A stretch of 64,000 nucleotides of DNA from Bigelowiella natans CCMP2755 (Eukaryota; Protista; Cercozoa). The position numbers were made by a program, and so were the translations under genes. How positions within the stretch are numbered: position 1 is the stretch's first letter; the number at the start of each line of letters is the position of its first letter. Below the pieces are notes generated by a model. The model was given only the letters and a program-made list of their open reading frames with translations, was not told the origin of the DNA and made no database searches. The stretch covers positions 1-64,000 of the forward strand of contig ADNK01002621.1 of assembly GCA_000320545.1 (NCBI GenBank). The letters are read 5' to 3'. Shown in pieces: positions 1-58,520 of this stretch.

Positions 1-51
1 CTCTCTCTCTCTCTCACTCACTGCCACCCCGCGCGCAAGCGACACCCCCCC

Positions 52-54
<3 letters not shown>

Positions 55-118
<64 letters not shown>
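55..118. repeat. (TA)n microsatellite, intronic; representative of many (TA)n, (GA)n, (CA)n, (CAT)n, (TAC)n and (CAG)n tracts
   Basis: Directly visible. Similar tracts at e.g. 3050-3095, 3221-3278, 15043-15087, 33178-33265, 47066-47145 and 50625-50726. Confidence 0.95.
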
Positions 119-121
<3 letters not shown>

Positions 122-137
122 ATATGGTTGCAGTGAC

Positions 138-1354
138 GTTTCTTGCTGTCCTGCAAACGAGGCGTCAGGTAGATCTTCAGCGGTAGCCGATGAGCGGACA
201 GCTAGGGCAGCATTTTCATCCCCCCCCGTCACACTCTCCCAGCTCTCCAGCATAGCGCGTTCCAATTCCGGGGAGAAGGGGGTGGCAAGGATCTTATCTC
301 GGATGTACTTGCCCGTCTCTTGTAGCTTTCGTACGTCTGTGTACACCTCTGGGTTCTGGAGAAGAGTGTCGATCTCTTCCGCTAATCCACTTTGCGCCAG
401 GAACAATCGGTATCTATATAAGGAAGGAAGGAAGGAAAGAGAGAGAGGTGTAAAAGAGGGGATGTATGGTGGTGATGGTGATGGTGATGGTGATGGTGAT
501 AGTGATGGCTGTGGGAATACACCCCCCCCCTCCTCTCCCCCTTTCTCTATGTGTGCTGTCATCGTTTTCCTCCTCCTCCTCCTCCTGCTGCTGCTGCTGC
601 TGCTGCTGCTGTGTAAGATATTGTTTTTTTGAGTAGTACGCGTGTGCCGTGGTGCTGAAGCCTCCTGGGACTGGTACATCGGCTGATGCAAGCTCACTGA
701 TCATCTCGCCAAGACTTGCGCTCTTTCCCCCAACGTACTCTACATCATTGTTATTCAACTGCTCGAGGGGGATGCAGAAGGCTGTTGCCTTCGCTACTGA
801 AACGCCCTCCTGTGCAGCTGTTGATCGTGCTCGCCATGGTGCTGTCCGTTGGGGTTGGTTGATGGGATTGGGGAAGAATGGCTGCTGCTGCTGCTGCTGC
901 TGCTTCTGCTTGGAGTCTAACGATTGATAGAGACCGTTCGTAGGCGCTCCAAAAAACATCCTTCTTGTATTCTGATGGGGGAAGCTGCTGATACTACGTC
1001 CTCTGGTTGTTCCGGAAGTAGTAGCACTTCCTAGGAAGGAGGAATAGGTGACATATATGTGGCCGGTCGAGATGATGGTGATGATGATGATTATGCTGAT
1101 GAAGTTGTTGATGATGATTATGACTAAAAGCCGGGAGATGAAAAGCCCATGCAATGGCAACAGCATAGCAACGACCCATTTCCTGGTTGTGAGCAGTGCT
1201 TACATGTATTGTTATCATCGGTTTCACTCCACGGCAATACCATACCTAGTAGCTCTTGTGGGCCTGTGGGTTGAAGGAGTAACACAGCAATGCCGAATAG
1301 CGCCGCCACGAAAGGCACCAGATTCAAGCTGCTTCTTTGGTGACGTAATCGCAT
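138..1354 (-). CDS. ppsA: Phosphoenolpyruvate synthase (pyruvate,water dikinase), 5' part, with bipartite signal+transit leader; gene continues past the window start
   Basis: Exons ~1354-1246, 1030-640 and 413-138 splice in frame at GT-AG. They give [27 protein letters not shown]..., then [29 protein letters not shown] and [22 protein letters not shown], which are PpsA nucleotide-binding-domain motifs. Confidence 0.92.
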
Positions 1355-29160: not shown

Positions 29161-30401
29161 ATGGGCCTCGTCGACCGGCTCGGGGCATTGCTGCTCGTCA
29201 GCTCTCTGCACCATGTAGGATAACAATCATCGGAGAGAACCTTTATGACATAGATATGAATTTCCAATACTTGCGGTTTTTAAAATAAGTTTTCTGTTTT
29301 GCAAAGTACATCATAGTAAATGCACAAGATGTAGGTAGGTGCACGTGGTCATTTCCATTCTTTGTCGTTGCGCCGAGTTGTTCATTGTTATCTTTGCTAT
29401 AGGCCGCGGCATCGTCATCAGACTCTGATGTTCGCTCGATCTCCCCACCGAGCCCTTCCCCTCCTGTGTGGCCCGAACGCTTTCATGCGGTTCTATTCCA
29501 GAATCGGTCAAACAGCTTAAGCTTTGTCGACTTGTACTACGACTGGCCAAAGGGGAGAAACCTCAATCTCATCCGTGGTCAACATGATGACGACAAAGGA
29601 TCTGCAGGTGCGCGCGCGCGCACACACACACACACACATACACATCAAATTTTGTATCTGCTTACAAATATATGCAGCATTGCATATTTATAGATCTATA
29701 TCTGTATCCACATGTACACGATCTTATTTATTCTAATGTAGAGAGAGAGGGGGAGGGGCGAAGCTTGGGGCGTATCTAGCCTTAACCTCAGTCTATTCTC
29801 AGAGTTATGATGTTACTATCGTGCGTTCCATTAGGAGAACTTTGGGATGTCGAGTTTGGCAATAAGACCAGCTACTACTATTTTCCTCGCACAAAATCAT
29901 GCAAGAAAATGGACTTTCCCGTTGGAATATTGATGTATATTTAAACATATTTGTGGTTTCTTCATAAAATCGTATTAATGGTCAGAGAAATGTTACATCC
30001 TAACCTTATTTCATCACCATCGCACCTATTTATTACGACTGGTAGGCCCAATTGGCTGGAAAACGCGACATTCCTTGGCACCGAGCAGGTCGATGGGTAC
30101 TCCTGCAACGTGTGGACAAAAGCAGATGGATTCATTACCTATTGGGAAGACATAGCAACGACGAAGCCGGTAATACAAGATGAAAGATAAATCAAATCGC
30201 CATTCTCAGTCTCTGGTGATGGTTTAGGTGAAGTGGATCTTCGGCTCAGGAATGGAGGAGCATGTGATGAAATGGGTCATTAACGAAACGCTTCCTGATG
30301 AGCAATGGGAGATTCCTTCCTACTGTAGTCAAGACTCTGCGATACTGCAGAGTGATGATACTAACGAGGTAGCATATTCTTCGCGCAGATTTCTACCCTA
30401 G
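29161..30401 (+). CDS. Secreted protein resembling plant At4g14100-type (ependymin-like) proteins
   Basis: Signal peptide, then [69 protein letters not shown] and WEIPSYC. Five GT-AG exons. Confidence 0.75.
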
Positions 30402-31024
30402 TCAAGACTTTCAACATTCGCCTCAAAGTGAATTATGTACTTCTTTATTTAAATAAAATGCATATGGCATAGTGTCACTGGCAGCATGGCAAAGCCAAAG
30501 AAACATATACGTGCCTGTATTTATGCATAGAGATAGTGCTAGTGTACGCTGCTCATTCGCTCAGCTGGAGCAAGCTCATTATCTATTGCCAAACCGTGTG
30601 CGTGTATAAGATCAATGAATGCTGTGTCCCTTATTGACCAGAAGCACAACTTGCATAGCTAGATAGGCTATGCATTATATGAACACGCAATGTGTAAAGA
30701 ACACCATGGATACTGTCTAGCTGTGTCTACATATATGATGACTTCAGCCACTCTAGCACTGCGCAACACGTGCTGGTATAATATTAATAAATGATGGCAG
30801 CATCACACACCGCGCAAACGCGTCATAGTAACGTCAGCATAGCGATGTTATTCTGGTATTACTCTATATAACTGTTATGCTATCAGCAAACAGGTGCTTT
30901 CATACCAGGACCAGACGTTCCATTAAGATGCACAAACATGTACGTAAAAACTTAAAGGTGCCATGGTGTAAGTTCGGGCTGGCATGTTCCCTTTGATCCG
31001 ACTATCAGCATCGTGTGCTCCAAA

Positions 31025-32781
31025 TCAAAATAATCCGGCGGTCTTTTTCAGTCTTCTCTGTCGCCAGCCTAGCAAATTTGTACGTATTTCCTCTTGTGTT
31101 TTCCTCAAATGTACTAATGAATGAACTTAATACGCCAAGCATGCTTGTACAGCACTCGCAATATTATCATATTGCATCATTATCATCGTCGTCGTCGTCA
31201 TCATTATCATTATCATCGTCAACACACATTGAATATCCAATTACGTTGCCTAAACACACCTGGTAACTTGTAGAAAGCTTGTTGATTCATACCAAACACA
31301 TCGGTGAATTCCTTCGGTGATAGAAAGTCCTGCAATAATGACACAATGTGCGATGGTGTTAATTGGGCAGTGAGGACGGGGAGATGATGATACGTGAAAC
31401 GGCCACGTTGAAGGCGAAAGACGTTGAGAAACAAAGAGCCTTCATAATCCATTCCTATAATCAATTGATTTCGCCAAGGTCTCGCTCACCTGCTTTCTCC
31501 AAGCTTCCACACCATCAGGAAGTACTGTTTCTCTCAGCTGCTCAAGGCTGTAGTACTTCTTCTTCTTGTTATTGCTTCTCTTCTCTTTCTCCATCCCACT
31601 TTCCGTACTGCTGTCTTCCGCTTTCCCCTTCCCTTCCCCTCCTTTGGAATTGGATGAGGTAGAGGAGGGAGAGGAGCTGCTTGCTTTTCGAGAAAGTAAT
31701 CTTGCCAAAGAACCGAGAGCAGCTAGAGAAACAACTGCGTCAGCAGGAGGAGGAGGAGAAGAAGTGGTAGTGGAGGAGGACACATTTTCCCGGATGATCC
31801 CTCCTTTCAACTTGGAGTCATTTCCTTCGGATGGCTGCTGCTCCTCCTGGTTCTTCCCTGTCCTCCTCCTCCTCCTCCTCCCTGTTCCAGAGAAAGTCTT
31901 GAGCTGCTTGCCCACAAGCAGTCCACTGACCGACTTGTATCTGCGGATATAAGTGAGTGTCAGATGATGAAGCAACAGCAGCATCACATGCACCCCAAAA
32001 TAAACCGTTTGCCGATGTTCTTGCACATGTATACATGTAGATGTGTCACTGCTGATGATAATTGTGATTGGTTCCTCAAAAGGTGATGATCGATCGATAT
32101 AGCACAGCCCGTTTTAGTTGTTTGAGAGAGATGTTGATCACATTGCTTTGGTGCTTCGATAGTTGCGCGACAAGACTACCTATTTTCAGGGTGTAAGTCT
32201 CCCGGGGACGAGGACCCCACTCCCAAAGCTTTCCTCCTGTAGTACTGCGTTCTTCGTGATTCCATCGACTTTGAACGAGCAAGGTGCTGTGAGCCAGCTT
32301 CCTTCATCGCGCGCAACAACCTGATTTATTTGTTGATATTTAGTTGAAAAGGGAGAGAGAAGGGGGGGGGGGGGGCATGTCCCTTTATACGGTTAACGTC
32401 ATTTTTGCAGCACCATTCGATTCTCCCCCCTTATCATTCTCCTCCTCCTCCCACCCCTTCAACATTGAATAGTCTGCATAGCCTGTCGGCCAGCCTCTTC
32501 GCCTAAATTTACACATTTTATGTTCATTACCTTTTCCTCAGCTCGATCACTTTGTTGCTCTTTGACCCCCCCTTTCCTCCTCCATGAATATGCAGCAGCC
32601 ATTCACGAAAGCAAAACGCGCTGTCCATAGCAGTGAAAACAGCATGGTTTGCGCCAGTACCCTACGCACAAAATTGAATACAAAAACACAAGATATATCA
32701 CACGACGATATATCCCCTAGTATTGCTGTTACTTCTCCTCGACGTTGTATGTAATATATTCATTGATGTGAGCAATAATTA

Positions 32782-32812
<31 letters not shown>

Positions 32813-33174
32813 TATTATTGAAATTCATTGAAAATATATATACCTGGGGCCAGAAGGGGGCAAGGCATGCATCACCCGCCAAAAAGACCGGAACAGCATC
32901 GAGACCGTAGTTGTTATTATCGTCGTCATCGTTGAGAAGCAACATTGCATTTGTTGTGTGGTGTTTATCTGAGAAGTCAAATAGCGCCACGTCCTCTCCC
33001 CCTCCTCCTCCTCCTCCTCCTCCTTCTCCACGAATTTTGTTCTTTGAAAACTTCTTCTCCTTGCACTCTCCCTCCCCAGCCGCCATTTCCCCGCACTCAA
33101 GGCCTGTTGATAATGCGGTGGCCTAAAAGAGGGAGACAACACGGTAATACACCATGATCACACGTATACTAATA

Positions 33175-33213
<39 letters not shown>

Positions 33214-33234
33214 ATATGTATATGTGTGTGTGCG

Positions 33235-33266
<32 letters not shown>

Positions 33267-33723
33267 AGGGGCATATGCATGAGTGCGCGAGTGTGCATTT
33301 TCAGCACCTCGTCGATGTCATCAATCTTGCGACAGAATGGCGTGTTGGGAGGTAGCTTGAAATAGGGTTCAGTGCTGCTAAGCAACCTGCATGCTGTTAG
33401 CAATGCCTCCTGATATGATACGTCGATTATGCACCCAATAGCACGGCAGCACTAAGATTGTAGATTAATCTTCTGGCGACTGCGAGGAAGGCTAGTAATA
33501 CTAAGCTACAACGTAAACTGTTCGCAAGTAAATGGCTAATGCTAGGTAACGACAAGATGATTTAGGAGAGGGAGAGGATGAGGGAAAGCGGACGGGGGAG
33601 GGAGGGGACAAGAGATAGGAAAAGGAACATGATGGCTATTCTCACTCACTCGATCAATGTTGTCTCTATGCAATAAACCTTCTCCAATAGTTCTGCATGG
33701 TGCATCACCGGTCAGTAGTTTCA

Positions 33724-33765
<42 letters not shown>

Positions 33766-35111
33766 GTTGCATTTAAAAGAAAAACAGCAAAGTGTGTGAA
33801 GAAGGCGGAAGAAAGAGGGGGAGGGGAAGAAGAAGAAGAAGAAGAATAACAAGAGATAGTGGCGGTCGATGCTGATCTTCTCTGCTGTTGATATGCAAAA
33901 TGATTAGTATAAGAGCTACTTGCTTTCTTTGAGGATTCCAGCTGCTAGCAGCGAACTCTTCGTGGGTGTCGCTACAAAGTAGTGATTGTACTCGCAGGTA
34001 AACGACACTACATTCTCCTGATGACACAGTATGATGATGATGATGATGATGATGACGACGACGACGATGTATTATGGATGGATTAATCAATCAATCAACT
34101 ATAAGTAGTAATATATACTACAGATAACAAAGAGAAGATGATGAAGAATTGATTGTAGTAAAAACGATGATCGGGTTGTATTCAACTTGTCCCCAATATG
34201 ACGACGGTGCCATCGCCATTATTGCCATCATTATGTTCATCATCATTATCATCATCATCATCATCATCAATTTTCATATTGAGGACCATATCCAGCTTTG
34301 TTCTCTTACGAATGGGCCCGAATATCTCCCCTTTCCTGCACACCACAGACGACGACGGAACATGTAATGAAGCGATGTATAAGCAGCACACGCAGATAAC
34401 TTTGAAGCAAGCACGGCATAAGACGAGACAAATACCGAACAACGAGCATAAAGAAGAGTAGGTGAGAGTTCTATGACCGCAGCAGCGTGAAATTAGAAGA
34501 TGAGGAGAAAGGTATTTGATGATATTGATGATGATGATGAGTTGTATTCTGAGCGCCACACGCTAAGTAGTCGCTTTTATTTCTCCTATTCTCTACCGCT
34601 TTTCTTCGGTGCAAGAGGTCACAACCCCATCACCACCACCACCACCACCACCAGCATCATCATCATCATCATCATCATCATTATCATCACTATTATTATC
34701 TCCTACACTCACCTATCAAACTGAACTGCGAATTTCTGATCACGCATTTGCCTCTCCTGAATAAATAGCACAGCATCATCATAGACATCAACCTGCCTCC
34801 CCGATTCCTCCCTCCTCCTATTTCTTGTCCTCCTCCCTATCATCATCCTCATCAGCATCATCATCAGCATCATCTTTACGTTCATCGAGCACAGATGAAT
34901 CGAAGAATAACCTGCTTTGTTTTAAGATTCACGAAGTTGCACGTGAGGCCAATTGCCATGCCGCCCCTATTACGACGTACACTCCATGATCGATTATCAT
35001 CCTCCTCCTCATCATTATCACCATCGTCATTGTCATCGCCATTACATCTCATACAAACACTATTTTCAAAATGGACATATACTACTCGTCTCTGCATGCC
35101 TACTACTACTG

Positions 35112-35144
<33 letters not shown>

Positions 35145-36417
35145 TGATCGCTTAACGTCGAAACCGGCCAATTTAGCTACCTATCATTGCCCATCATCAC
35201 CGCAAATAAAGAACAACAGACACATCGTCACCATCATAATCATCATGATAAAAACGTAGAAGTTAGTAACGATCTTAATGATGATGATAATGAGAGAGAG
35301 AGCAAGAGGACAATATATAACCATTGTCGGTCAACGTCCCCCCCCCCCCCCCTGCAATCAATACATTAACGAGGAATGCCATGGCAAGACTACATCACGG
35401 TAACAAATAGCTTCATATTGATTCCTACCCACCCCTCTAGAAACACTGGAAGAGCCATCACATCCAAAAAGCGCATCGAAGGTAATGACACTCTCCTGCT
35501 TCTTCCCCATCTTCGTAATAGTGCTAATATGTGCAGAGTAGCCACCATTTTCATCACCCCCTCCTCGCTGTATATCATTGAGTGTTGTGGACTTTAAGAA
35601 TCGAACGCCAAGCATGAGGCAAGCCTTTAGGAGGCACGTCTGGAATGTCCCTGACGAACAAAAGCCTTCTTAGAAAGATGAAATCGACAAGTATTTGTGT
35701 AGCCATGCAAAGGAGGCCGGATACAGCAGCGGCGCAATGTTACTACTCGCGAAACTATTATTAACATGATTTATTATTTTCATTTTTATTACGGATAGGG
35801 ACTGTTTGACTTTTGCTTTGCCCCGAACCTGTGTGTGTTTGTTTCTATGAGCCTTCACCACACACACAATATCAATATATTTAACACTGCCGTGTGTTTT
35901 TTTGTATGGGTCTTTACTACAAATACATACTAGACACATATTATTCAACTTTTCAAATTATAATTCGGAAATGCATCAGTGACAACTAGTATATGGCGAC
36001 CACATCGGTGTTCTTTCTCTCCTTCTTCTTCTTCTTCTTCTTCTTCTTCTTCTCTCTCTCTCTCACTCACTTTGGTTTTGAAAATTTTATTCCAAGATTT
36101 TTCAGATCAGTTACGATCTAAGGATAAGACGATAATGATGAGAATAATAACAACGACGCCACTGGCGAATCAAAGAAGGAACTCAGTAGTGTGGTAGTAG
36201 TAGTAGTAGTAGTTTTAGTGGTAGTAGAGAAAGGTAAGAGGATAGTAGCTGGATTTAATAGTGTTGGTCTCTCACTAACGCCGTCCTCTTCCTCCCTCCC
36301 CTCGTATATTAAATAAAACAGTCCCCGCATACACTTATAGGCCACGCACCAAATCCCAGATGTGCAACACATTCCAGCGAGTGAAACTGAATAAAACGTA
36401 GGTAGAAAGTATGATCG

Positions 36418-36448
<31 letters not shown>

Positions 36449-37529
36449 CCGGCAACAACGGCAGTGAGAGAGAATTCGTCAAAAGTGCCGAGGTATTGCA
36501 GAAGTCATAGATTTCAATCTCTTGGTCACCTTTCTATTCCACACTCATCCGAATCACCCATACGTATTATCATCCCATCTAGTCTCTTACCCCTTCCTTT
36601 TCTCGATCACTGTGACGTCAGCTCCAAGCAGAGCGCACTCTATTGCACAACGTAGACCGGCAGGACCGCCCCCTACGACCAACACCCTGAAACCTGGTGG
36701 CCAACATCATATGAGCACTTATTCGCCCAAAGCATGTAATACACACTAGCAGAAAGGGGCTGCACTGCATGAACCACCCTTTGCGGGATAATTTTCGTAT
36801 TCCTGGGAATCCCATCGGTCCAGCAGCTGCTGACAGTAACGCTTCTCTTTGCATCTTCGATGACCCGGCATCGCGTCTCGGATGTACATCTATAAATATC
36901 GTCATCGTTATGAGCAGCAGCAGCTGTTTTCTTGAAACGCTGATATGAAGCAATTGGAGGCGCTGCGGAGCTCATTAAAATGGACTGATTCTTTCAAATT
37001 TGAAGAGATCAAATATATCTCAAATGGGCGAAAACAATACCAGAGCTCTTTTCGAATCATGGTCAAAATTAGGATCCTTGATCTTCTTTATGTAAGGAAC
37101 TGCTGCGAGCTTCAACCTAGGTAAGTCGCAACAGTTAGGGGAGAGGGCGGGGCGCGGGGGAACGAGATATAGCGGCTAAGAATTTTTATGATGAATCCGT
37201 TTGATTTTTACATCGTTGTCGTACAAACCGGTGTGCTGAGTCTACAACTTGCTCCATTCCCTCCGCCTCTTGAAAATCCTAACAATTGAGGAGGAGGAGG
37301 GAGTTCGTTGGTTGCGATCACCTTTTCTTGATGGCACGTAAGCATTAGATAACCTTAAAAGCAAGGCGAACAGACTCTGGATCTTTCGTTCTACGCTGTC
37401 TCCATCGCCTCTGGATGAGGACGATGAACCGCAGAGCGAGCACGCGGAACGAGTCGTCTTCGGTAGCCATTGTGAATTTTCGTATGTTTCGCTAAGAAAT
37501 GCCGGGGAATTCGTCTGTACGACAACCAC
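31025..37529 (-). CDS. MICAL-like FAD-dependent monooxygenase with C-terminal villin headpiece
   Basis: [79 protein letters not shown] and [17 protein letters not shown] appear in MICAL monooxygenase order. The protein ends [45 protein letters not shown]. The ORF at 37242-37529 and an exon at ~37116-37045 appear to splice in frame. True start is unresolved. Confidence 0.85.
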
Positions 37530-38287
37530 TTTTTACGTCATATTCGCATAGAAACAGCTCACAAGAGTATGCCGTCCATCGGCCCTTCGATTAGTAGATA
37601 GATAGATGGATAGAAAGACGTCATAGGGCGAGCTGTGGTTGGACAACGATAATCCCGTTGTTGGCGCCTGCTGCGGGTCTGTCAATACCGTTAATGAATA
37701 CTCTGGGGCAACAAATATGTTCGCCGACCTGGGTGTTGAAGAAAGAAGGACCTGGCGGGATCATGTGTCGTAGGATGTTGTTGTTGGAGCCTCTTGGATC
37801 TTAGCGATTGTCATTAAACTCCTTACATGTTAATTATAGAGGGGAGATTGTTCTATCACACTTTTGCACCACATCTATGCATCCATGCATGCAACTAAAG
37901 TCGCAAAAATTTCGAACCAGCAACATGATCGGCGTGCACTGTCGCATCGGAGGTCACATGCTGAGCACTCTAGAGCTACAGCAATGACTAGGTGACGCAT
38001 GGCCGACGTACATTTACTAGGGACACGATAAATGTTGTATTGTATGCCGATGCATTTCTGTGTTCAAATGCATGCGATCCACAAACCATGGAAGTGCATT
38101 GGTCGATTTAAACGTGTACGTACATCGTACAACTCTGCAACACACGGCAGACATGTCTGTCTACATGTGTCCCGTTTGCGAGCGGACACATGCTGCTATG
38201 CTAGGTTTTGCGAAGCGGTAATTCCCCATGATAACTAGATAATTGTGGCAACAACAAACATGACACATCAAATGAGCACGTACAGTA

Positions 38288-41200
38288 TCATATTCGCGTG
38301 GGCGTGGCACGAGAGCCTTCTTTAGCTAGCAAGGCTTGGTTTCTACTAGAATCATTAGACGGCATGATTGAGGATGTCTGCACTACGACACCATCTACTA
38401 CAGATGAGGGAGCTTGCTGTGCTCTCCTAGAGGTCGACGGCACTAGTAAGCCTCTGATGGAAGACTGTGCACGCCGAGAGAGTCCAACATCAGAGCTCAA
38501 CTCTGGAACTCCTCGATGACTGGTCAACGGCGTACCAACTTGCGAACCTCCAATGGGTGTGTGAGGGGTGGAAGGGTCTCTTGAATTGTTGAAGTCTGAT
38601 CCTTGAGAGGCTACATTTTTTTCCTGGGGGTGTCGTTGCTTCGAGTCCATGACATTGAGCTCCAGAGGAGAAGGGGAGTGTCTTCCAGACTTATCCTTTG
38701 CAAGTCGACCTCTAGCTCCACCCTGCCCTCTCCACTTCAAGTACCAATATATCCCACCACACAACATGACCGCAACTGCAACCATAACTATTATGATGGG
38801 CAAAGCTAACAGCTTGTCATCGCTATCATTAACACTCCCTTCATCGATCTCAATGCTATCACTCTCGGAGAATGCCGTCGAGAATGCAGTTAGATGCGTG
38901 CACCTGCACAATGTTGATAGTTCGCGTATCTCATGCACCAAGCAACCAGTAGTTGACCAAGCCTGAGCCTCAACGTCGAAGTATCTGCAGGATCTTCTTC
39001 CTCCGCTGTTCCTGCTGAGGGCGTTGGTTGACAAGGGGATGGTGATATCGATCGGGCCGGTCCCATTGATTGTTATTTCTCTTCCTCCGTATGCATCATG
39101 AAAGGAGAGGACGACAATATCAGAATTGGTCGTGTTGCCTATGTCCGCAAAGCTATAAGCTTCTTTATTCAGCCTGTAGAAACGGGTCTCTAGCTCCTGG
39201 ACCCCAGAGAAGTTGGCACCTTGAAAAACACGGCTGCTGACCACAAACTTGGGCCTATCTGGCCCTTGCTCCCCAAACAGTACTCCCGGAGCGTCTTCAT
39301 CGCTCTCATCGACAAACGCAGCGACATAATCCTTTCTAACTTTGACTTCTGTGTTATCATCGGTCCTAATACTCAAGTTCTGTCCAGGCACGATGCCCTT
39401 GGCTAACGCTCCAGAGACTTCGTCCAGAATCCTTGAAAAAGACCTTAGACGACCCCCGCCTCCACTCCCGGCCCTCGATGATGAGGAAGAATTTGAGGGA
39501 GAATAGGATAAGGAGTCGACGTATGTAGCTACTGACGAAGAGGTCACAATATCCAAAGCCATGGTGGGGCTAAGAGCCAATTCATTGGTATTTACGGTAC
39601 TGAGAACAGCTAACGTCGAGCTTAATACTTCCTCTCCAACACTCTCAGAGCTCTCAGACTTTGAACCAAATACGATTCGAAGGAGAGCCAGACCTTGCTC
39701 GACCTCGGTTTGAGTGCTTGCATTCGTAATGACGTTCTTTGTGGAGCGCAATATACTCTCTTTGATGTTACGGTTACGCCTTAGCCTCTCGGCCCGTTGG
39801 GCGCTATTACCAGCAGCATCTGTTTGTAGTATTTCTTCAATGGCAGCAGCGATCTGCAACGCCTGGCCTAGCTCACCGTTACTGACTGAGTTGCTCAGCT
39901 CTCGGTCAATTATCGAGAGAGAGGTCTCCTCCACGTTATTGGTGGTCGAGCTTGCGGAGCTCGATGTGTTAAACTGAAGCAGTGATGGTCGCACGGTCAC
40001 GTCGAAGTCCGTGTATGCCATGGCTCCTTCACCATTTCGAGGGTCTGAATCACTGATGCATGCCCTCACCTTCTGTTTGTATGCGTTGGCCTCTAGCCCT
40101 GCTGGCAGTGCTCTCACCGTTATCGTAGGCGACTGCGCCCAATCTCCAAGCATATAATCTTCTGAAACGTCTCCTCCCACGCTACTCTTCAGCATCACGA
40201 AGCGATACCACAAGGAGGAGGAGGAGGAACCGCTAGGATCGTCTGGATCTGACCATCCACTGCAGCTGAAGGTGAAGTAGTCGAAATCGAGAGTCGTACC
40301 GTTGTCCTGTGATGCGATACAGGAGCCGCCGGAGGCTGGCGCATCTGCAACGAGGATGACGTGAGCCGTCCCAGACCTCCTGCCAGCCCCCCTCACATTG
40401 ACCGTACAGGTCGTCTGGCGGCCTGCAGCTAGCTGGGACTTTGGAATGCGTAGATATGATGATGAGAGAGAACCAGCAGCTCCTGTGTTGAAACCGCCTC
40501 CTGCACACGCCCACTCAAAGGTGTAGGCTCTAAACTGGGCGAGATCTGCCGCATCGAAGGTGGCTGAGAGAACGATATCCCTACTTGGGTCGACAAGATG
40601 CACCTCAGATTCATTCATTGGCTTACTTGGGGAGACGACCTCTACCCCAACAAGAATCGTCGGGCTAAGAGACACAGAGATCTTGACCCTCGCTGTCGCA
40701 GATCGAGTGTCGTAGGCTGAGCTCACATCCAGGTAGAAGTAGTAGTCTTGGCCTCCCTCTAGCGCGTTGGCGGGGACTAAAAGTTTGGAGGACGCCATAG
40801 AAGGGGGCATCGCATTTGCGGAGAAGCAAGGGGCCGTGCTCGAAGAGAAGACACGTTCGCACCGCCAACGGTAACCTATGTCATATCTTCTCGAGCTCCG
40901 CTGAGCTGGGTCTTTTGATGTGGAGCCGTCGAGGATAAATGATCGAGTGACAGATACGAGTCTATCACCGCCTCTTATTCTTGCCTTGATATCCTTTGCT
41001 ATAGCGTCGATACAAACGTCCTGTGTCTTAGTGTTCGACCACGCGCCAATACCCGCCTGGATCCCCATAGCACTGTAGGAAACCTTGAAGCAGTACACAA
41101 AGCCTGGAGTTAAGCTGTATTTTGGAATGAGTAACTTGTTTGAAGTTGGTCGTTTAATCTCCACATAGGGCCCAGACGTCTGGCGCCATAGGTAATGCCG

Positions 41201-44200
41201 CATTTTGGGGTCGCACACCTTTACAATACCTCGAGCTTTAATATTGACCCATCGTGAGGTATACAGAGTGCGGTTCTGTGGGCCAATGATTGAAAGCACC
41301 ATCGTGGGATAGTCAATACCGCACTCTTTGCATCGAAGGTTCGGCTTGTACAGACTGCCAGGACTTCTGCATGAATATTCGCGCGTCATCCTCGAGCCAA
41401 CAGGATAATACCCCACTTTACAATCGACGGTGCAGCTTGACCCCGAATCCAATATCTGACCTTCTAAGCAGCCTCCAGTGGCCGCACCTTTTACTCCAGG
41501 TTGAAACTCCCCGGGAAGCTCGCAAGTCACAGCCGGGCTTGTATCTGTTATAGCTATACACGACAGCGTTGGTGCCTCCAAAGTGCCTTCATGGCAATGG
41601 TATATACTTGTGCCTGAGGCCGAATAGTATCCACTCGCACATCCGACTTTGCAGAACGACCCACCCTCCAGCCGTGCTCCAGCAAAGCACTTAACGCTAC
41701 TGCCACCACTTGGTACTACATTGTTGGTGAAGAAGGATGGGAGCTGACATGAAGCCTCTTGGCACTTTAGCGCTGGCCTCAAGAGCCTACCTTCTACTGA
41801 GCAAACGAATTGGGATGGATTTATGTTTGTGGTTGTGGTGGGAACGTATCCTATGGCGCAGGATACTGTGCAGCTTGTTCCCCTCGATAGGTAGTTGTTC
41901 GATAAAGAGCCAGGGTCTGGGCAAGTATTATGTATAATGCCCCTGCCGTAGTACCGAGGCAGCTTGCAATCGGCTCGAGTGGGTTGACTTGTTGGAAGGC
42001 GAATGATTCGAGGTGAGGGAGCCTTTGTTGGAAGCCTTGATGGATAGCGTGTGGGACGGTGCGAGGGAGGAAGAGGGTCTGTGTTGGGTTGGCGCGTTGG
42101 AAAGCGTGTGGGGTATGGAGTTTGAAGGAATGTGGGCTGTCTCGTTGGCACAAGAGGAAGGTAGGTTGGCAGTTTAGTCGGAATAGGGTTTGGATACGGA
42201 GTTGGATATGATGATGATGATGAGGAAGGCGTTGGCCGAGATGTGGTTGGAACACCCGTGGAGATACCGGCACATTGAACAACAGGTGCAGGCGTGGGCT
42301 GAGAAGCAATGCCGATGGAACTGGTCGTCACCTTGAGCCGAGGCGGTTGACTTCCGCGACGGCTGTAACATTTGAAGCCTTTGTAGTCTGTATTCGGCTC
42401 AACCCAGAATGTGACCCACTGAGCTGATCGGGCCAGCGCACCGACCAGATGAGCCTTCACGTCAAATTCGAAGTAACGATTGGTGGCGTTGACCGCTAGT
42501 TCCGTGATCTTGCTTCCTTTCAAAGGGCTACTCGACCACGTTACTGATCCTTCGTTGATCGACGAGTCGCTTTGCGCAGCAAACACAGAAAACACGCCGC
42601 CGCCATTTTTTAACGTTACAGCATAAAGACGAAGCTGAGCCATCCGTACTTCGCCTCCCATTCCCAAGAAATGTGACACATTAAAGTTGAAGAGCCCCAC
42701 AATCTTGGCATTTGCATTACGGTACACCTCCACATTGGACCAGTCGCCTGTAGAGGTCGGAGAAGCCTCTCGAATCGATGCGTCGTTGTCGCACACATCT
42801 GAAACCGTCGAGATTGTTGCCCCTGCAGTGACGTACACAGATTTGGAAGTTCCCTGGCCACCGGCTGCATCAACCGCTACAGCTCGCAAGGCGTAAGACC
42901 CAGGCGATGGTGGACTCCAATCTACGGTGTATGGCGCTTGGGTGTCAACGCCAATCGACACACCACTTGCAAAAAACTCCACCCGTGACACAGTGCCGTC
43001 GCTGTCTTCTGCTGCTGCGGCAATGACAGCGCTTTGCCCAACCTGTAAGTTGGTGAGAGCGGCAGGCGAGATGATCAAGGCCGAGGGCAGACGATTCCCA
43101 ACAAACACATCTACTGTCAACGACGTAGCATTGTTGCCATCAGTATCCTTGGCGACCGCCTTGATTGAGTATGAACCATCTGGAGGAGTGAATCCAATAC
43201 GGAAAGGAGGAGGAGCTCGAGACACGCCAATAAGGCAATCGCCGGCGAAGAATAAAACCTTTTCGATGCCCCCAGGGCTTCCAATCTTTGAGCCAGAAGG
43301 ATCTGTGGCATTAGCATAGATCTCAATGTTCTGCCCCGAGATGAAACTGGTGCCGTTTGAGGGAGAGACAACGGAAATGGTGGGAAGGTGACTTTGATCC
43401 TGTATCCACAGAGACATGGAAGTGTCGATGAAGGTGGAGATACGAACAGCGTCAAAATAAAGCGTCCTCATATCTCGGATCTCTGTGTACATGCCAAACT
43501 TGATGTATCCTCTTGACGAGGAGCTCGCGAGGTTTCGTCCTAGGTGTTCAAAGGCAAGTTTGCCATTGAGCCAGACGCGGATGATGCCGCTACTTGACGT
43601 CGAAGACTTGTAGTACACCTTCACGTCTGTCCAAGCGTCTCGCTTTGCATAGCCAATAGGCGTTCCTTCGTCGGTCGGGCTCGTGAAGTACTCGCCCCTG
43701 AAAAACAACCTGTAGTCGCCCAAGTTGCTCATCCTCAGCGCAGCTGGGGGGTTGCCTCCTCCGACCTGCTTCCATTGCGAGATGACACATGAGTATCTGG
43801 AAACTTGGTCCCAAGTGAAATCAGGCCTGAAGCTCATCGTGTAGTAATATTCATCACCGGGGTAGAACTTGTACGCCTCAGCACTCGTATCTAACTCGGC
43901 ACGGTAGGCATAGTCGCTATTGGGGTAACTTCGGCCGTCCGCCTGCACTTTGAGCACATATCGTCCTTCTCTGGCCCAATCTACCTCAACGACCGAATGG
44001 TTGTGCAGTTTGCTAGGACCGATGTTAGTGCCACCTTTCCTCACCGAGCTATCTCCATTCTCTGAGTACGTTGGAGTCAGAGGTACAACAAGCCCCGATT
44101 CCACCGTCCCGCTTTCCCATGAGGCAGAGACTGCACGTCCCCCACCCTGGCTTCGTGTGTTGGGGGCGTGTGTGGGCTGGCGAGAAAGAGGAGAAGGGGG

Positions 44201-47065
44201 AGCTCCAGGGTCAAGTGTGGGTTGTAGGGCCGGTTGATTGGTGGGGTGCCTTGTAGGTTGTTGCGTAGGCAGAGGTTGTTTAGTCGGCTGCAGCGTTGGC
44301 ATTGGAGTTGGATTGGAAGGCGACCGGCTTGGATATGGAGTTGGAGCTTTTGTTGGTGAATGCGTTGGGAATGGAGTCGGATTTGATGGTACTCTGTTAG
44401 GATCGTAGAAGGATGGGTATTTAGTTGGCTGCTTTGTAGGCTGGCGGGTAGAGGGTGCCGGTGATGCAGCTGTAGGATACGCTGTCGGATAATTCGATGG
44501 GGAGGTAAGTGGGCTTACAGTTGCTGTTGGCGATGCTGTTAAGGCTGCTCCAAATAGAGCAGGAAATGATATTGAAGCACCAGCATAATAGCTTGTAGAG
44601 TGATTGTAGTATTCTGCCTGGGACGGATGGGGAAGGGGGACTTCCAACAGGGTCACAGAGCTAGTTGAACGTATCACAACCTTGCTGAGGGATTGCTTTG
44701 GCCACACACCCTGGAATGCGAATGGAATTGAGGCATCTTCGAAGATTTGAGGTAATGAGAAGCGTACGGTTAACTTCGGCAGTGGAGATGAAGAATAGCT
44801 GGGAACCAAAGGCCAGCCAGGAATCTGACTCAGCGTGCGGTTGGCGAGTGCAACAGTCAAGTTCCACTTAGATTCGGTTGAAGGGCGCCTGAGTTGCAGT
44901 AGAACAGCCTGCTCTGCGATGACATCAATGTTAGAGCCACCTGGGCCGATAGGTAGCGTGATTGATGTCTGAGGCTTATAGAACGCTGCCTGGATGCTTT
45001 TTGGTCTGCGAAAAGACCCCTCTCGATAATCTACAACCACTTGTGCGTGCTCATCGTTGCGGAGGACTACAATACCCGTTGAGGTAAATAGTGTCTTTGC
45101 AAGGTCTCCTATCTCATTGGGATTCTTGGATGGGACTACGGCGTACTTATATTCTGCATCGGAGGGGTTCGCACCGTGGTCAATAACGATTAGCATGATG
45201 TAGTCTGAGTTTTCGTACTCTCCACCACTCACCCACCTTCTCTTCTCTCCCCAGCTACGGCTTGACTTGGCGCTGCTATCTGTAGCCACCACATCACTGT
45301 AGCCGCATCTGAGCTCCAAATTTATAGCTTGATTGGAAAATGGGTTTGATATTATGTATCCAACACCAGCTTGGTGGATCCACGCAGCCTGCAACGGCTG
45401 GATAGCGATCGATGTTGTGCAGCCATTACTTGTGGAGAAGGGAATTACGGTCGCAGCCGAAGGAGATGTAGCTGAAACTTTGTATGTTATTTCCCCACGC
45501 CACCGCGTTTGGTCAACCGTCGTAACGATTGGCCTACCCTGCCCTGCCTTAATTCTGTTTATGGAGTTGCCCAATAGGACAGCCCCAAAGTCCATGAAGA
45601 AGAAACCCTTGTTGGCTGTAGCTGTGTTGTAATCTTCAGTCTCCTGCAAGCTTTGGCTGTACCGAAAGGCAGAAATTCCTATCTCCCCATCAGAGACGGT
45701 GCCGGCAAATGAATTTCCTCCACACCGATATCCTTTCTTTGGAATATTATCTGTCCGCCATTCCTCAGTGACTCCTAGTTGAAGTATGTGGTTGGTGTGA
45801 GAAGAGAATAAGTGAAATAATGGTGATGATGATGATGATGATGATGATAAGAAGGATGAGGAGAAGGAGGAGGATGGGGAGGGGTTTGGAAAGTACAAAA
45901 ACAACGGTGAATCGGTGGGTGTGGTTGATACCCGGGAGCACGTGCCAATCCATTCTGGCCCTTATCATATCATATTCATCCCCGTAAACCTTGACCTGGA
46001 AGAGCCCCGACCCCATATGCCATGACTTGCCTGGTGACTCAAAATCCTCTGCTCCTTGTGCCATATTCGATCGCATCCTCACAGACATATACCAGCCATT
46101 CACTCGGTGTACCATTGCATTGACATTCCAAAAAGCTGTGTTTCCGTTCCTTGCTGGTTGTGGTCCCTCGGATGACGAAGTACTTGCTCTTAAAGCCTCA
46201 AGTACAGTTTCTCCACAAGTGGAGGATATCTCAGCGGCAAAATAGTCAACAATGATATCAACGGCTTCCCTAAATATCCTACTCCAAAATTCAAACATGA
46301 AGTCGGAAAAGTAGCTCCGTCCGCTAAACCCAAAATCAAGGTGCCCTTTGAAGACGATCTTTGGGTATGTATACACGAGAAATTTGGCTGGTGTCTCGAA
46401 CCAAGATGCCGGAAAAGCGTAGCGGGTTTGTCGGACGATCTTGGCCACCTTGAATTTGTTTGTGTGAGTGTGCGCGTGTGTGCGTGTGTGCATGTGTGTG
46501 TGTGCGCGTGTGTGCGTGTGCGCGTGCGAATGTGAAAAGGTTTTTAAAAAAATAATGGCAAAACATTGGATGTTGCGACACCTTGAGAGGATCGTTGAGC
46601 CATTCAAATCCATAGGCCCATAAAGCACTATCCTGGCAATTATCACAGTGGTGCGAAATCATGCCATCCGGCAAAAATCCGGACATGAACATCATTTTTG
46701 GCCTAGTATAAACGTCTAGCAAAAGAGAACGGACATCTTCGAAAACACCTGTTCGAAAACAAAGTATTTGTTGTGAGTGAAACAACGTGACGGTTAAAGA
46801 TGGTGCCTTGCCTTGCGGTGTTGGAAGAGCATGAATGAAAGCAAAGTTTGAGGTTATTGATTTCCCAGAGGAAAAGGATCTTGAATCGGTGTAGTCCAAT
46901 GAAAAGTTGTAACTATTGGAGTACCTGTGTATTTTATGCGTGTATCGATCTATGTAATCATAATTCGACACTTTATCACGACTTTATGTACGAACACAAA
47001 TATACTTACTAATCTGATTTCATGTAGTGAGTGGTGAATGTTTTGCGTGCGTATGTATTGGATCT

Positions 47066-53463: not shown

Positions 53464-53497
<34 letters not shown>

Positions 53498-56490
53498 GCA
53501 TGCCACCCACCCCTGCAGGTTGATAGTAGTCCTTCTTCTCCCAGAAGAGAGCTGCCTCGAAACTTCTTCCGAACTGGATCTTTTCACCGTTTTTATACTC
53601 CTTGAAGTCGTCATATCCCTGCTTAAACATGACCTTGAATCGAGAAGGAGCAGCCGCCTCAGATGATGACGAAGTGGCAGCAGTGTTAGTGTTCTCCACA
53701 TGCATCATAGCCTTTTCTCGGATGATTCTTTGCGCTTTCTCTGCACTGATATACTCGTCGTCGTCATCATAACTAGCACTACTAGCACCGCTGCTTCTTC
53801 GCTCTAAAGGAAGAGTGAGCAGAAACGGGGTCCCGAAATCTTGGTCGTAGTAGCTGCTGCCCCCACTGACCTTGTGGTTTACCGCGATGATGACATTGTC
53901 ACGGTCCTTGCCCTCCTTGAGGTCTGGGCATTCAAAGGCATAGATCTTGTCGTTGGCCATAATCGATTCCAGCTGGTGGCGCGGGGAGAATATCTTATAT
54001 ACTTTGCTCTGATAGATCTCACAGCTCACCAGTTTCTTGGCGTTGACACCTGCTGCCATTTTCGCCAACTCTTGATGGAGGTCGATAACTGACCCATTCT
54101 TCGGAACTGCAACTGCATATGCCCTTCTTGGAAGCTCGGGGTTCGCCCTGACGAGAGTCACGACCTGCACTTTCGTATCAACGTTGGGAAATGGGAGCTG
54201 CAAGATGCCACATGGGTCGAACTTGACACTAGCTCGGTTGCAGGCCGGACAGATGACCTGTGAGCGTATCTGCCCGTAGATGTTATCGATAATCACGGAA
54301 TCTTCACGCTTACGATGCTTCGACCAGCTCAACTGAGCCTTCTCCTCATCATCTTCTCCATTTCCGATAACAGGGTTCGGGTCATAGGGTTTCTTTCTCA
54401 CCCTATTTAAGTCCTCGTGCAACCCCTCTAGCAAGGCTGCTAAGAGCTCTTGAGAATCCTGCTGCTGGTACCCACTGAACCTATCCGAGTAGTCGCCAAT
54501 GGCACTCTTGAATCTAGACGGAGTCACGGTGTGAGGCCGCCTGTCCCACATCTCCTTTAATAGTTTGCCAAATTCGCGCGCAATACGCCCGTGAGACCTA
54601 ACAGACACGACACGATTTTGAGAAGTACAGCGATGCAACCAGAAGAAACATACTTTGTGAAATGCGAGAGCTTGAGGAAATGTTCGTATTTTGCGTAGGT
54701 TTGTGTGCAATACTTCCAACATAAACATCCTCTCGTAATTCTATTAATTACTTATATGCGTCCGGATTGATCTCGCTGGTGTAGTCTCCATCGACGAAAA
54801 AGTCAGCAAGAACTGGAGTGGCATTCATGCATTGTAATGTTGAATTCATAAAGCATGTGTTTCCAAGGTTCCGAAGGCCAACTGATCCTCTTACGCCGCC
54901 GCCACTGTATCCCCCCCCTCCTCCTCGCCAATCTCCATCGTCATAGTCCATCCTACGTGAGAATTCTTTTCTCTCACAGTGAGTGCCTGCCTTCGCAAGG
55001 CGCTCGGAATTAGTGTCGATCCATTCGTTCCAATCACGCTCGTATCCTATGTATGTGACGTAAATGCGATTATTATTAACTTGCAGCACTTGTGCCGCGA
55101 GCCAGTGGTTCTCGGTATCCAGGCAGTCGATCTCGTCATTAACCTCAAAATCACGCCAATCTCTCACCTGGATAGACATGTTATCTGTTAAGAAAGAACA
55201 AATTGATACAATTGTGTAGGTAGGTGGGAGGGAGAGAAGAAGTTGAGGAGGAGGAGGAGGAGGAGGAGGAGGAGGAGAAAGAAGAAGAAGGGTTGTGCGG
55301 GGAAGAAAGGGAGGGGGGCTGGGGTTGTAGAAGACCTTGATCTCTCGAACCCATGTTCCATCCGTTTTCTTTGTTTCCAGCATGAGCTTGCAAACTCGGT
55401 TGGACACTAGAGAGAAGTTAGGATCACCCAACTGCACCCTAAGTTGCATATCGTTGACGGGCTTCCAACTAATTATCTTCTCCCCCTCCCCAGGCAAGAG
55501 TTTCTCTCGCCTGATCAACTTCACCTTTGTGGTGGGTTTTGATTTCTTATCTTTATCTTCGTCACATAATACTACGAAGCGATTGTGCGGATCCTTGTCA
55601 GCGAGATGAAGGAGGTCGCCAGGGTACCACTCGCCGCGATAACAAGCCTCAACTCTTTCGCCAACTTCATAAGGAAATGTTCTTCGCGTCTCCTCTCGAT
55701 ACCAAAGCCGAACAGCTGCCTCCTTATTTTTCTCTTCCTTGTCTTCGCTCTTTGTCGGCGTGCTCGCTGCTTCCGCAGCAGATTTCCTATCAGCAGCGCC
55801 TACATCCTCCTCTTCCATCTTATCAATTTTTGGTGTTCCCTGTTCTCCTTCTTCTGTGTTCATAGCTTTTGTTCCGCTAGCGCTCTTATACCTCTTCGCT
55901 TCATCTTCCAAGACCTTCTGAAGTGTTGCATCACGAGGATAAGGGCGCACAGCGGCAGTATCGAATTTGACGATGTCGTTTTCGGATGATGATTTGCAAG
56001 GGGCCAGCACAACGTATACAGGGTGCAAGTCCACTTTCACCCTCTTCGTGATTACCCCTGCCATTTTGGTTGTACGCTTGATAAGTGGTCCTCCAGTGTA
56101 CCATCCACAAAGAGTCTCCCATACTGGGAGGGGTAAGAAGAAAAAATCTTGAATCTCTTGGGCGCTCATACGCAAGTGCACGATGCCGTCCGGTAAGTTC
56201 TTTTCCTCCTTATCTTCATTACTATCTTTTACTTCCAGCAACACACTATTCTCAATAGGCCCTGGAACAATAGCACTGGACATCGAATTGTCTTCTTCCG
56301 GCCTGTATTGCCAGAATGCCTTGGACCCTGTGTAGTCGATCCATGTTTCCAACCATTTGGAGGATATCAGGCACCACGTCTGGCCCGCCTCCATTTTACC
56401 ATGCTTCTTCATCATATCAGCGATAATACCACATTGCTCTTTCGGAGCAGGTCGTCCGACCGTCTTTTGATGAGTTTCCATCGAAGCCAT
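52084..56490 (-). CDS. Ubiquitin-specific protease of the USP4/11/15 type (DUSP + Tudor/MBT-like inserts + split catalytic domain)
   Basis: [23 protein letters not shown]. Cys box [53 protein letters not shown]. His box [21 protein letters not shown], then AYLLFY. Confidence 0.93.
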
Positions 56491-57119
56491 TCTCGTTCCT
56501 CCACAGCTGCTGGTTTACTGGAAATATATGACAGACCGCGTTGAAGAATCCAAACAAATGCGAAATCGCTGCTGATCACTACTACTAAGCCTGGATGCTC
56601 TGAGATTTACCACTTTTCGAGTTTGAGGAAAGATCGGGCAGAGCCAGAGAGGTGATTCCCAGAGCCTTCTTCGTACAGGATGAGTTCTCGCTTCACAGAG
56701 ATAAGACCGAAAGGAAGCAAGATCAGGAGACTTTTTATCGTAAATAATCCTAAAGATTTTGTGCGACATGACACAAAGAATGTCTTAGTATCGGAACATG
56801 TAAACGAATGATTTCCTGATTTCCCAGGAAAGAAATCGCTGCATCAATCCAATTCGCCGACAGGAAGGTTTGATTTGATTTTTAAGACACATTGACTTAT
56901 TAATTTCATTCTCTATTCGAAATTTCTCTGGATTTTGCAATTTTCCCTCTGGGTTTACAGCAACTTGTGAGCGTTTTGGTCCTTTTCTTCGATCAAGTAA
57001 GCTCTTATTAAAATCTCGTATTGTTATTGTTTCAAGGAGAGAGGAGGAGAGGGAAGAGCTCCCTCACAAAGCACGATAAACGAAAACAGGAGGAAAGAGG
57101 AGGAGTCTTTCCACACGTT

Positions 57120-58520
57120 ATGATTTGCCTATGGATTTTGTTGAGCCTTTCTCTTCAGAGCACAACAATGGCTTCAAGGTGCGAAGAGGCGAGGGAAACT
57201 CTTGATAAAAACTGGGTTGGATCTTCCACGATCCCTGCGTTTGGGTTATATCCTCATCAATGGAGTTGGGATACGGCATTTATTACGTATGGACATGCAA
57301 CTTACAACACAACCAAGGCGCAAATCGAATTGGAGAGCCTCTTTGAAGGCCAGTGGGAAAACGGCTTGTTGCCACACATTGTGTTTAACCCCAACGTCGC
57401 TCCCTCAGCCTATTTTCCTGGATCTGACTACTGGCTGTCCTCAACAATGTCCAACGACCTTGCACCACTTGGAGTTGAAACCTCTGGAATCGTTAATCCT
57501 CCTGTACATGTCTCTGCTGTTTTGAACTTGGTTCGTCGTGATCCATCAAGCCCTCAAACTGCATCGTTTCTTCACCGCATTTATCCAAAGCTTTCTCGAT
57601 GGATGGGATACCTTCTTAATGAACGCGATCCTGATGGCAACAGTCTTGTGTACATTCGTCATCCGTGGGAGTCAGGCATGGACAATGCCCCTCAATGGGA
57701 TGCGGTCCTTGATAATATCACAGTGCCATCCGGCTCCATCCCGCCTTATCATCGCACCGATCTCAATCACTCTAATCCAAAAGATCGACCCTCAAATTGG
57801 ACCTATGACAGATTCGTTTTCCTCATGATTTGCGCCAGAAATAGGAGCTACTCTGAAGCTGCTATCTCTGCATCAGACGGCACAGGATGCCCATTCATCG
57901 TGGAGGACCCTTTGTTTAACTCAATTCTTGTTCAAGCCGCAAAGGACATGGCAGAGCTTGCTCTTTTGCTAAAACCGGCAAACCCAACGGAGTCCAAGCA
58001 TTGGATGGAGGTGGCTAGTCGCGTAGCAAAGGCCCTCGAAAGTCTTTGGAGCGATGAGCTCCGCATGCTTGCGAGTCGAGATATGCGTACGAAGAAACCC
58101 CTACTTTCACGCGTTATTGCAGGGTTTGCACCGCTGCTGATTCGACAACCGTTTCCAGGAGGACCTCCAAGCTACTACGATAATCTACTGCGATCGCTGC
58201 AGTCCCCAGCTACTTTCTGGAGCCAATACGGAGTACCAACTCTTGCAATCGACGATCCAAGATTTAATAGGCGTCTTTATTGGCGTGGTCCGGCTTGGTA
58301 TAATATGGATTGGCTGTTCCTTCGTGGACTGCAAACAGTCGGAAGCAACGCCACAGATACAGTAGCGGAAGGGCTGTTGAATCGGATGGAATCGATGGTG
58401 GATGAATCCGGCATGCGGGAATATTGGGATCCATTGAACGGCACAGCCCACGGTACAAATAGTTTTTCATGGACTGCTGCGTTGCACCTCGATGTTTTCT
58501 GTGATCAAAATGTAAACTAA
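57120..58520 (+). CDS. Secreted, intronless GH63-like glycoside hydrolase (glucosyl/mannosyl-glycerate hydrolase-like (alpha/alpha)6 barrel)
   Basis: Signal MICLWILLSLSLQS, LYPHQWSWDTAF, HPWESGMDNAPQWD, YWRGPAWYNMDW and REYWDP..G..FSWTAAL in one continuous ORF. Confidence 0.85.
   Translation: MICLWILLSLSLQSTTMASRCEEARETLDKNWVGSSTIPAFGLYPHQWSWDTAFITYGHATYNTTKAQIELESLFEGQWENGLLPHIVFNPNVAPSAYFPGSDYWLSSTMSNDLAPLGVETSGIVNPPVHVSAVLNLVRRDPSSPQTASFLHRIYPKLSRWMGYLLNERDPDGNSLVYIRHPWESGMDNAPQWDAVLDNITVPSGSIPPYHRTDLNHSNPKDRPSNWTYDRFVFLMICARNRSYSEAAISASDGTGCPFIVEDPLFNSILVQAAKDMAELALLLKPANPTESKHWMEVASRVAKALESLWSDELRMLASRDMRTKKPLLSRVIAGFAPLLIRQPFPGGPPSYYDNLLRSLQSPATFWSQYGVPTLAIDDPRFNRRLYWRGPAWYNMDWLFLRGLQTVGSNATDTVAEGLLNRMESMVDESGMREYWDPLNGTAHGTNSFSWTAALHLDVFCDQNVN

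Follow-up and report, generated by a model that had tools for sequence, protein, structure and literature searches.

In the portions of PMC9982024 and PMC5772675 available to us, the MICALs are treated as a family that extends from Drosophila to human, and the corresponding part of a LIM-based survey (PMC3305314) places the MICAL class at the metazoan stem and reports its absence from the non-animal genomes covered. Animal MICAL1-3 and Drosophila Mical share an N-terminal flavin monooxygenase (MO) with a helical cap, three flavin motifs and an active site of the N123/Y293/W400 type, and they carry CH, LIM and bMERB domains in addition. Villin, advillin, dematin, ABLIM and plant villin-4, in turn, share a terminal headpiece of ~64 residues with a W, a K and a C-terminal F. 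Here we describe a gene that joins the two modules: in a stretch of 64,000 nucleotides from Bigelowiella natans CCMP2755 (contig ADNK01002621.1, positions 1 to 64,000; hereafter the window), the minus strand encodes, in the spliced model, a protein of 779 residues over 22 exons (ATG 37470 to stop 31025) that is composed, in this order, of a MICAL-type MO, a basic linker rich in Ser and, at the end, a villin headpiece.

The MO has the same layout as that of the animal MICALs, at about 31% identity over 464 columns. The protein nevertheless differs from them in that it has the villin headpiece in place of the CH, LIM and bMERB domains, in its poly-Gly and acidic inserts, and in a diverged actin-protected face. 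It is a MICAL-type MO that does not belong to the MICAL family of animals, for which CH-LIM is the defining trait. Our literature search, which covered few subscription papers and excluded supplements, found no paper on protist MICAL-type enzymes or on a MICAL-headpiece fusion; the accessible part of PMC12050087 mentions MICAL solely in a reference.

Structure and transcription of the gene

When the minus strand is read in three frames, the motifs lie scattered across short exons with repeat-rich introns between them. In the spliced model, all motifs named by an earlier note, which had proposed the fusion from the letters of the window, share one reading frame. Contigs of run X5 contain at least 15 of the 21 introns as CT..AC joints on the plus strand, i.e. 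as GT-AG introns of a minus-strand gene (three joints at repeats were dropped from this tally), and seven of these 15 recur in X1, X2 and X4, which come from three further studies; the remaining six introns were placed via canonical sites, frame, contig depth shares and record coordinates. No run among the four, from four studies, that yielded spliced contigs is on record as RNA, and it is the spliced joints themselves that show transcription and splicing of the gene.

The connection between the two modules is given by a single X5 contig (record 1, 1254 nt), with pieces at 32985-32843, 32660-32529, 32318-32180, 31940-31489 and 31067-30789. A gap of 70 nt in this record matches exon 21, with joints present on both sides, and X1 and X2 each hold one record with exon 20 and the last exon at the same 70-nt spacing. 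Since the last MO motifs (GD/PFWP/GTG), the headpiece and the 3' untranslated region (UTR) stand on one spliced contig, the headpiece is not a separate gene, which bears out the earlier proposal of a single gene. Further upstream, no contig of X1, X2, X4 or X5 spans the GGA repeat of exon 17: the 5' contig would extend as far as 33002, the 3' contig begins near 33024, and both points fall within the repeat of one open exon. The gene had been taken to start at 37529; the probable start is ATG 37470, and the 5' contig begins at 37469.

The frame of the window is broken by one base at exon 7/8, where the canonical exons 2-8 add up to 461 nt and the contig to 460 nt. At 460 nt the reading frame stays open, and W and I-R lie as far apart as in MICALs; the protist protein P0298 has F-G at this place, and exon 8 of the window also reads F-G before the shift. 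The simplest cause, and a likely one, is that the assembly has one base too many in the G run 35821-35824; a 12-nt micro-exon used together with a later acceptor would give the right length as well. If exon 8 were shorter and no micro-exon were added, the sum would be 448 nt, which the 460 nt of the contig rule out. The contig-to-window alignments list no indel, but exon 8 adjoins a skipped repeat; the break is read as X in the model. The parts of the gene are as follows.

37354..37470, minus strand: exon 1, with ATG, residues 1-39 and an IQ-like stretch seen by eye; X5 record 3, piece 37353-37469
37229..37278, minus strand: exon 2, N-terminal helical region of the MO; inferred from GT-AG, frame and a 52-nt depth share in its bin
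37041..37116, minus strand: exon 3; inferred from GT-AG, frame and a 73-nt depth share in its bin
36778..36889, minus strand: exon 4; 3' joint 36691/36776 seen, 5' end inferred
36591..36693, minus strand: exon 5, GxGxxG Rossmann motif (GGGPAG) and EKR; joints, FAD families
36350..36386, minus strand: exon 6, RWNVLHIW; joints
36071..36117, minus strand: exon 7; 5' joint seen, donor inferred
35793..35828, minus strand: exon 8, one-base frame break; 461 versus 460 nt, F-G in P0298
35433..35650, minus strand: exon 9, DG motif (CDG); piece 35431-35649 in X1, X2, X4 and X5
35143..35180, minus strand: exon 10; 5' joint seen, donor inferred
34912..34966, minus strand: exon 11, [10 protein letters not shown]; 3' joint seen, acceptor inferred
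34713..34756, minus strand: exon 12; both joints
34287..34335, minus strand: exon 13; 5' joint seen, donor inferred
33920..34017, minus strand: exon 14, ENVV..HYFV, MICAL-specific; PF25413, E 1.4e-4
33650..33692, minus strand: exon 15; both joints
33308..33409, minus strand: exon 16; both joints
32844..33122, minus strand: exon 17, poly-Gly insert, DVALFDF and AGD..PFWPQ; both joints, two contigs end in the GGA repeat
32531..32661, minus strand: exon 18, GTGANHA; piece and joints in X5 record 1
32180..32320, minus strand: exon 19, C-terminal segment of the MO, ends P..RY; piece and joints, alignment
31490..31940, minus strand: exon 20, linker and N-terminal subdomain of the headpiece; piece in X1, X2, X4 and X5, composition
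31260..31329, minus strand: exon 21, villin headpiece core; PF02209, E 1.7e-7, and villin-4 headpiece 5vnt, E 6e-4
31025..31068, minus strand: coding part of exon 22, W-R...LKKTAGLF and stop; PF02209, E 0.0045, joint 31067/31259
30789..31024, minus strand: 3' UTR; contigs to 30789 (X5) and 30828 (X1), X21 minus-strand raw reads at 30585-31218

Exon 1 has no Pfam match, and its IQ-like I-Q-x-x-x-R lacks Pfam IQ support. At 33380-33678, X1, X2 and X5 have contigs that run through intron 15 (33410-33649) without splicing, which suggests some intron retention or DNA.

The two modules and their relatives

Exon 14 alone matches the Pfam family PF25413 (Rossman_Mical), below the curated cut-off because it spans only 32 residues; its top PDB matches are to mouse MICAL1 (E 0.67-1.3, insignificant alone). 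Exon 5 matches FAD Rossmann families of Pfam, and exon 9 alone gave no match in a word search (49 candidates) or in PDB. Once joined, the model matches animal MICAL open reading frames (ORFs) at E 6e-42, the best matches being an arthropod-like MO-CH-LIM MICAL (with this E) and MO-only proteins, these ORFs having been supplied by a metagenome motif scan of at least 119 loci (about 420 estimated), and it scores 338.6 bits against a profile of 18 MICAL sequences. The GxGxxG, DG and GD flavin motifs are all present, and 108 of the 245 columns that are invariant in four animal MICALs are kept, as compared with 87-135 in four protist-type MOs. At the level of single residues, 14 of the 16 FAD/active-site positions taken from the available parts of PMC3645671 and PMC11315924 are retained (K115, R116, R121, N123, H126, I157, R158, N243, Y293, D360, D393, F399, W400 and P401; mouse MICAL1 numbering, carried by motif through fish MICAL1), the changed ones being 122, which is Trp, and T291, which is Asn. 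The MO is thus an intact-looking flavoenzyme of the MICAL type, the type that the earlier note had given it, and the MICAL-only features (PF25413, the N-terminal helical region or cap, and the P..RY end) argue against a PHBH-type metabolic hydroxylase. That note had further seen no CH, LIM or Rab-binding coiled coil, and we concur: none of seven seeds for CH, LIM, bMERB and gelsolin matches the model at E<60 (three of the seven match 181, 172 and 91 of the collected proteins as controls), and no Rab-binding coiled coil follows the MO, the protein stopping at the headpiece.

The linker (residues 593-719) has 25 K+R and 34 S+T among its 127 residues and a predicted isoelectric point (pI) of 10.4. 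Behind it, exons 21 and 22 match the villin headpiece family VHP (PF02209) at the extreme C-terminus, as expected for the complete headpiece that had been claimed; the best PDB match of exon 21 is the villin-4 headpiece, the N-terminal subdomain alone gave only chance matches to designed propeller repeats, and the headpiece as a whole (exons 20-22) terminates in [12 protein letters not shown]. Human villin can be mapped onto it without gaps by counting back from the terminal Phe, which pairs W815 with W767, K816 with R768 (conservative), K821 with K773, F827 with F779, R788 with R740 and K789 with K741. According to the part of PMC7525818 available to us, villin W815, K816, K821 and F827 are needed for bundling and replacement of KEK by AAA is tolerated, so that KKTA in place of KKEK should be no defect. 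The retention of the W, the K, the terminal F, the R-K pair and the hydrophobic core across three exons suggests selection on a folded headpiece. Compared with the villin-type proteins, that of Bigelowiella has no gelsolin core, is attached to an enzyme and has KKTA for KKEK and Gln at E39.

Although a rarity of protist MICALs had been implied, such MOs occur in many protist proteomes, some of them auto-annotated as MICAL, and databases already contain MICAL-type MOs of protists. A first homologue search gave mostly animal MICALs among the best 120 of 197, and a profile of ten protist-type sequences retrieved 758 representatives at E<=1e-30; 77 of the best 150 of these are less than 50% identical to the MICAL2 MO, a proxy that also lets in a few animal proteins, e.g. 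one of a sea cucumber. Named holders are Balamuthia (KAL6074477.1, auto-annotated as MICAL3), Thecamoeba, Paulinella (two), a dinoflagellate, Salpingoeca, Monosiga and Effrenium; an oomycete protein of Globisporangium is annotated 'Mical-like', and in the Atlas, Oomycota and Bacillariophyta account for the most clusters with PF25413. The catalytic domain is thus spread over amoebae, Rhizaria, choanoflagellates, dinoflagellates and oomycetes, and we found no described function for it there. No MO relative was found in viral contigs (no pattern matches; four candidates, none confirmed).

The protist MOs (P0298, P0246/P0326 of Paulinella micropora, Balamuthia, Monosiga A9V176 and Globisporangium) are of the same type as that of the Bigelowiella protein; where partner regions are present, the MO mostly lies C-terminal behind long N-terminal regions, and the partners include zinc finger, EF-hand, PH and LIM and never a headpiece. 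Counted over 62 non-animal-like proteins (30 in one Pfam scan and 32 of 35 in another, the latter limited to the best five families), the recognised partners are a RanBP2 zinc finger (1), EF-hand (2), PH (2) and a CEP19-like domain (1), next to one LIM-MO (P0315), one MO-LIM-PDZ (P0307) and one LRR-gelsolin-LIM-MO protein; 53 are without a recognised partner. The EF-hands hint at calcium control, compare the IQ-like exon 1. The PH-MO proteins of Salpingoeca (P0239) and Monosiga (P0264) stand apart from the animal MICALs in trees, and the LIM-based search of PMC3305314 would miss them.

The leucine-rich repeat (LRR) protein is represented by three near-identical records, P0337-P0339 (1696-1698 of 1700 residues), of 1700 residues each, with LRR, two gelsolin repeats, LIM, a weak EF-hand and a C-terminal MICAL-type MO in a Flightless-like arrangement. 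These constitute a second fusion of a MICAL-type MO to an actin-binding family. Like the Bigelowiella protein, they join such an MO to an actin-binding module outside the animal clade; unlike it, they have a Flightless-like N-terminus, have the MO last and belong to another branch, as judged from the MO fragment P0199, which groups with Balamuthia. That branch holds proteins of Balamuthia and Thecamoeba. The Atlas gave no usable match for P0337.

A phmmer search with the headpiece of the model gave no match in the 477 proteins and ORFs collected, of which 380 contain an MO (the set having no positive control), and VHP was absent from the Pfam scans of relatives and from the 120 domain lists of the best 120 of 197. 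As this survey took in a minority of the 758 representatives, uniqueness of the fusion is not proven. An independent assembly, as had been proposed, is supported by the absence of a headpiece from the 380 MO proteins and from the nearest relative, P0298, a PF25413 protist MO that shares RWNVLHIW and PFWPQGTGAN and carries a RanBP2 zinc finger.

In a quick LG+G4 tree of 32 chosen rows, built without a PHBH/phenol hydroxylase outgroup, the Bigelowiella MO is a long branch paired with P0298 (36% over 461 columns, SH-aLRT 99) outside the supported animal core of six rows, and in a FastTree analysis of 92 rows it groups with Paulinella, P0315, P0298 and L045 (97). An earlier pairing with L045, in the first tree, was discarded as a long-branch join. 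Placement of the Bigelowiella sequence alone with the six animal rows was rejected (p-AU 0.0025), as was its placement with eight animal-side rows (0.034); when P0298 moves along with it to the animal rows, the tree is not rejected (p-AU 0.40), and a group with P0298, Paulinella and P0315 reached a log-likelihood 10.9 above that of the free tree (p 0.74). The backbone lacks resolution, and the trees are compatible with a rhizarian affinity.

Possible function and rival explanations

The explanation that we favour, at about even odds, is that the protein is a headpiece-tethered MICAL-like enzyme, which would cling to F-actin, oxidise methionines 44/47 of actin and weaken the filament. The headpiece would then bind the side of F-actin, helped by the basic linker, and the FAD would turn over with NADPH in a PHBH-type cycle that consumes NADPH and oxygen; the presumed substrate would be the methionines of the actin D-loop, and their oxidation would weaken the filament. 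The MO fragment alone is the active form of MICAL1, as stated in the available part of PMC11315924. Devoid of the CH-LIM-coiled-coil brake of MICAL1/3, such an enzyme would be constitutive or otherwise controlled, perhaps, speculatively, through its IQ-like N-terminus. An actin-linked role is favoured because other non-animal MOs carry actin-linked modules (P0337/P0338, P0307 and P0315). As regards the suggestion that the enzyme acts on filopodia or reticulopodia, the only link is that chlorarachniophytes have actin-based reticulose pseudopodia, as described in the accessible part of 10.1101/064030.

Several observations weigh against actin as the substrate. Those parts of the MO that are shielded from exchange by F-actin in human MICAL1, as defined in the available part of PMC11557892, keep only 2/8 (148-158), 2/15 (253-277, beta11-alpha11, with approximate limits) and 0/10 (440-453) of the animal-invariant residues, compared with 108/245 for the MO as a whole; the flavin-side segments 278-300 and 390-411 keep only 10/21 and 9/17. 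Gelsolin or LIM, moreover, occurs in only 3/62 of the non-animal-like MOs, with 53/62 having no recognised partner. Finally, Gln742 takes the place of villin E790 (E39 in HP67 numbering), as read across joint 31328/31489. Packer et al. are reported to have found, in 2011, that a buried E39-K70 salt bridge is needed for folding of the N-terminal subdomain and for actin binding of isolated HP67; Gln742 is our main doubt regarding actin binding by this headpiece. Given the protected segments and this Gln, actin as the substrate, which had been argued from the attached module, is not established. The loss at the protected face is itself ambiguous, since in MICAL1 the same face also binds the autoinhibitory coiled-coil helix (PMC11557892, available part), which the protist proteins lack, and since four other protist MOs are likewise low at these segments. 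The headpiece tether may compensate for the diverged actin-contact face.

The combination of a headpiece with its actin residues kept and an MO whose actin-protected face and substrate-side loops have diverged would also be expected from an actin-tethered oxidase with another target, i.e. an actin-associated protein or a local release of hydrogen peroxide. Animal MICALs are known for NADPH oxidase activity and for non-actin targets; all characterised members of the MO family nevertheless act on actin, and the divergence recurs in the MOs of other protists and could stem from the coiled-coil contact having been lost, and we judge this explanation rather unlikely. Some natural headpieces do not bind actin, and Gln at the salt-bridge Glu would suit a headpiece that has degenerated into a non-binding relic, or one that serves as a protein-interaction tag, on an MO whose substrate is unrelated to actin; the 53 relatives without a recognised partner, the EF-hand, PH, CEP19-like and RanBP2 zinc finger partners of others, and the closest relative's lack of a headpiece point in the same direction. 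Against such a relic stand the residues and core kept over three exons and an MO whose sequence argues against a PHBH-type metabolic hydroxylase, which leaves it distinctly improbable in our estimate. It is more improbable by far that the gene is broken at exon 7/8 or that its halves lie on separate transcripts. The one-base break in the window, the lack of a contig over the GGA repeat of exon 17 and the alignments without an indel would fit this; on the other hand, the contig has 460 nt over exons 2-8, in frame and of MICAL length there, both contigs stop within one and the same repeat of a single open exon, and the headpiece contig carries the last MO motifs, with spliced contigs in four runs of four studies.

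A headpiece-tethered actin methionine oxidase without a brake would also have a wider implication, which we put forward as tentative and with slightly less than even confidence: redox actin disassembly may be ancient in eukaryotes, one MICAL MO having repeatedly been given different actin-targeting modules, i.e. a villin headpiece in this protein, LRR-gelsolin-LIM and LIM-PDZ in further protists and CH-LIM in animals. If the protein acts in this way, it hints that control of the cytoskeleton by actin oxidation predates the animals. As a natural fusion to a module of an actin-binding family, it makes it possible to ask directly, and on a small scale, if enzymes of this kind oxidise actin, and hence when the cytoskeleton came under redox control; it would also show how a MICAL works in the absence of the CH-LIM-Rab brake.

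Neighbouring features of the window

At 38288-45961 (minus strand) lies an open frame of 2557 residues that is intron-free over 7.7 kb in an intron-rich genome. Its domains are polysaccharide lyase 8 super-sandwich, Polysacc_lyase, Ig (Big_7), CBM96, REJ and GPS, with a hydrophobic segment close to the C-terminus, and it is predicted to be a polycystin-like surface protein with carbohydrate-active domains. Just upstream of the MICAL-headpiece gene, at 37560-37921, there is an apparently divergent transcript, seen in X2 and X4 contigs and in X21 raw reads on the plus strand, with no Rfam match and no clear ORF. On the other side of the MICAL-headpiece gene, a spliced gene at 29400-30467 (plus strand; joints 29934/30046 and 30168/30227) converges on it; its three exon frames have no Pfam match. 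The remaining features, identified by eye, look ordinary:

14-1199, minus strand: PEP synthase-like
53493-56514, minus strand: USP deubiquitinase split over two frames
57012-58520, plus strand: secreted glycoside hydrolase-like ORF
60994-62957, plus strand: DEAD-box helicase

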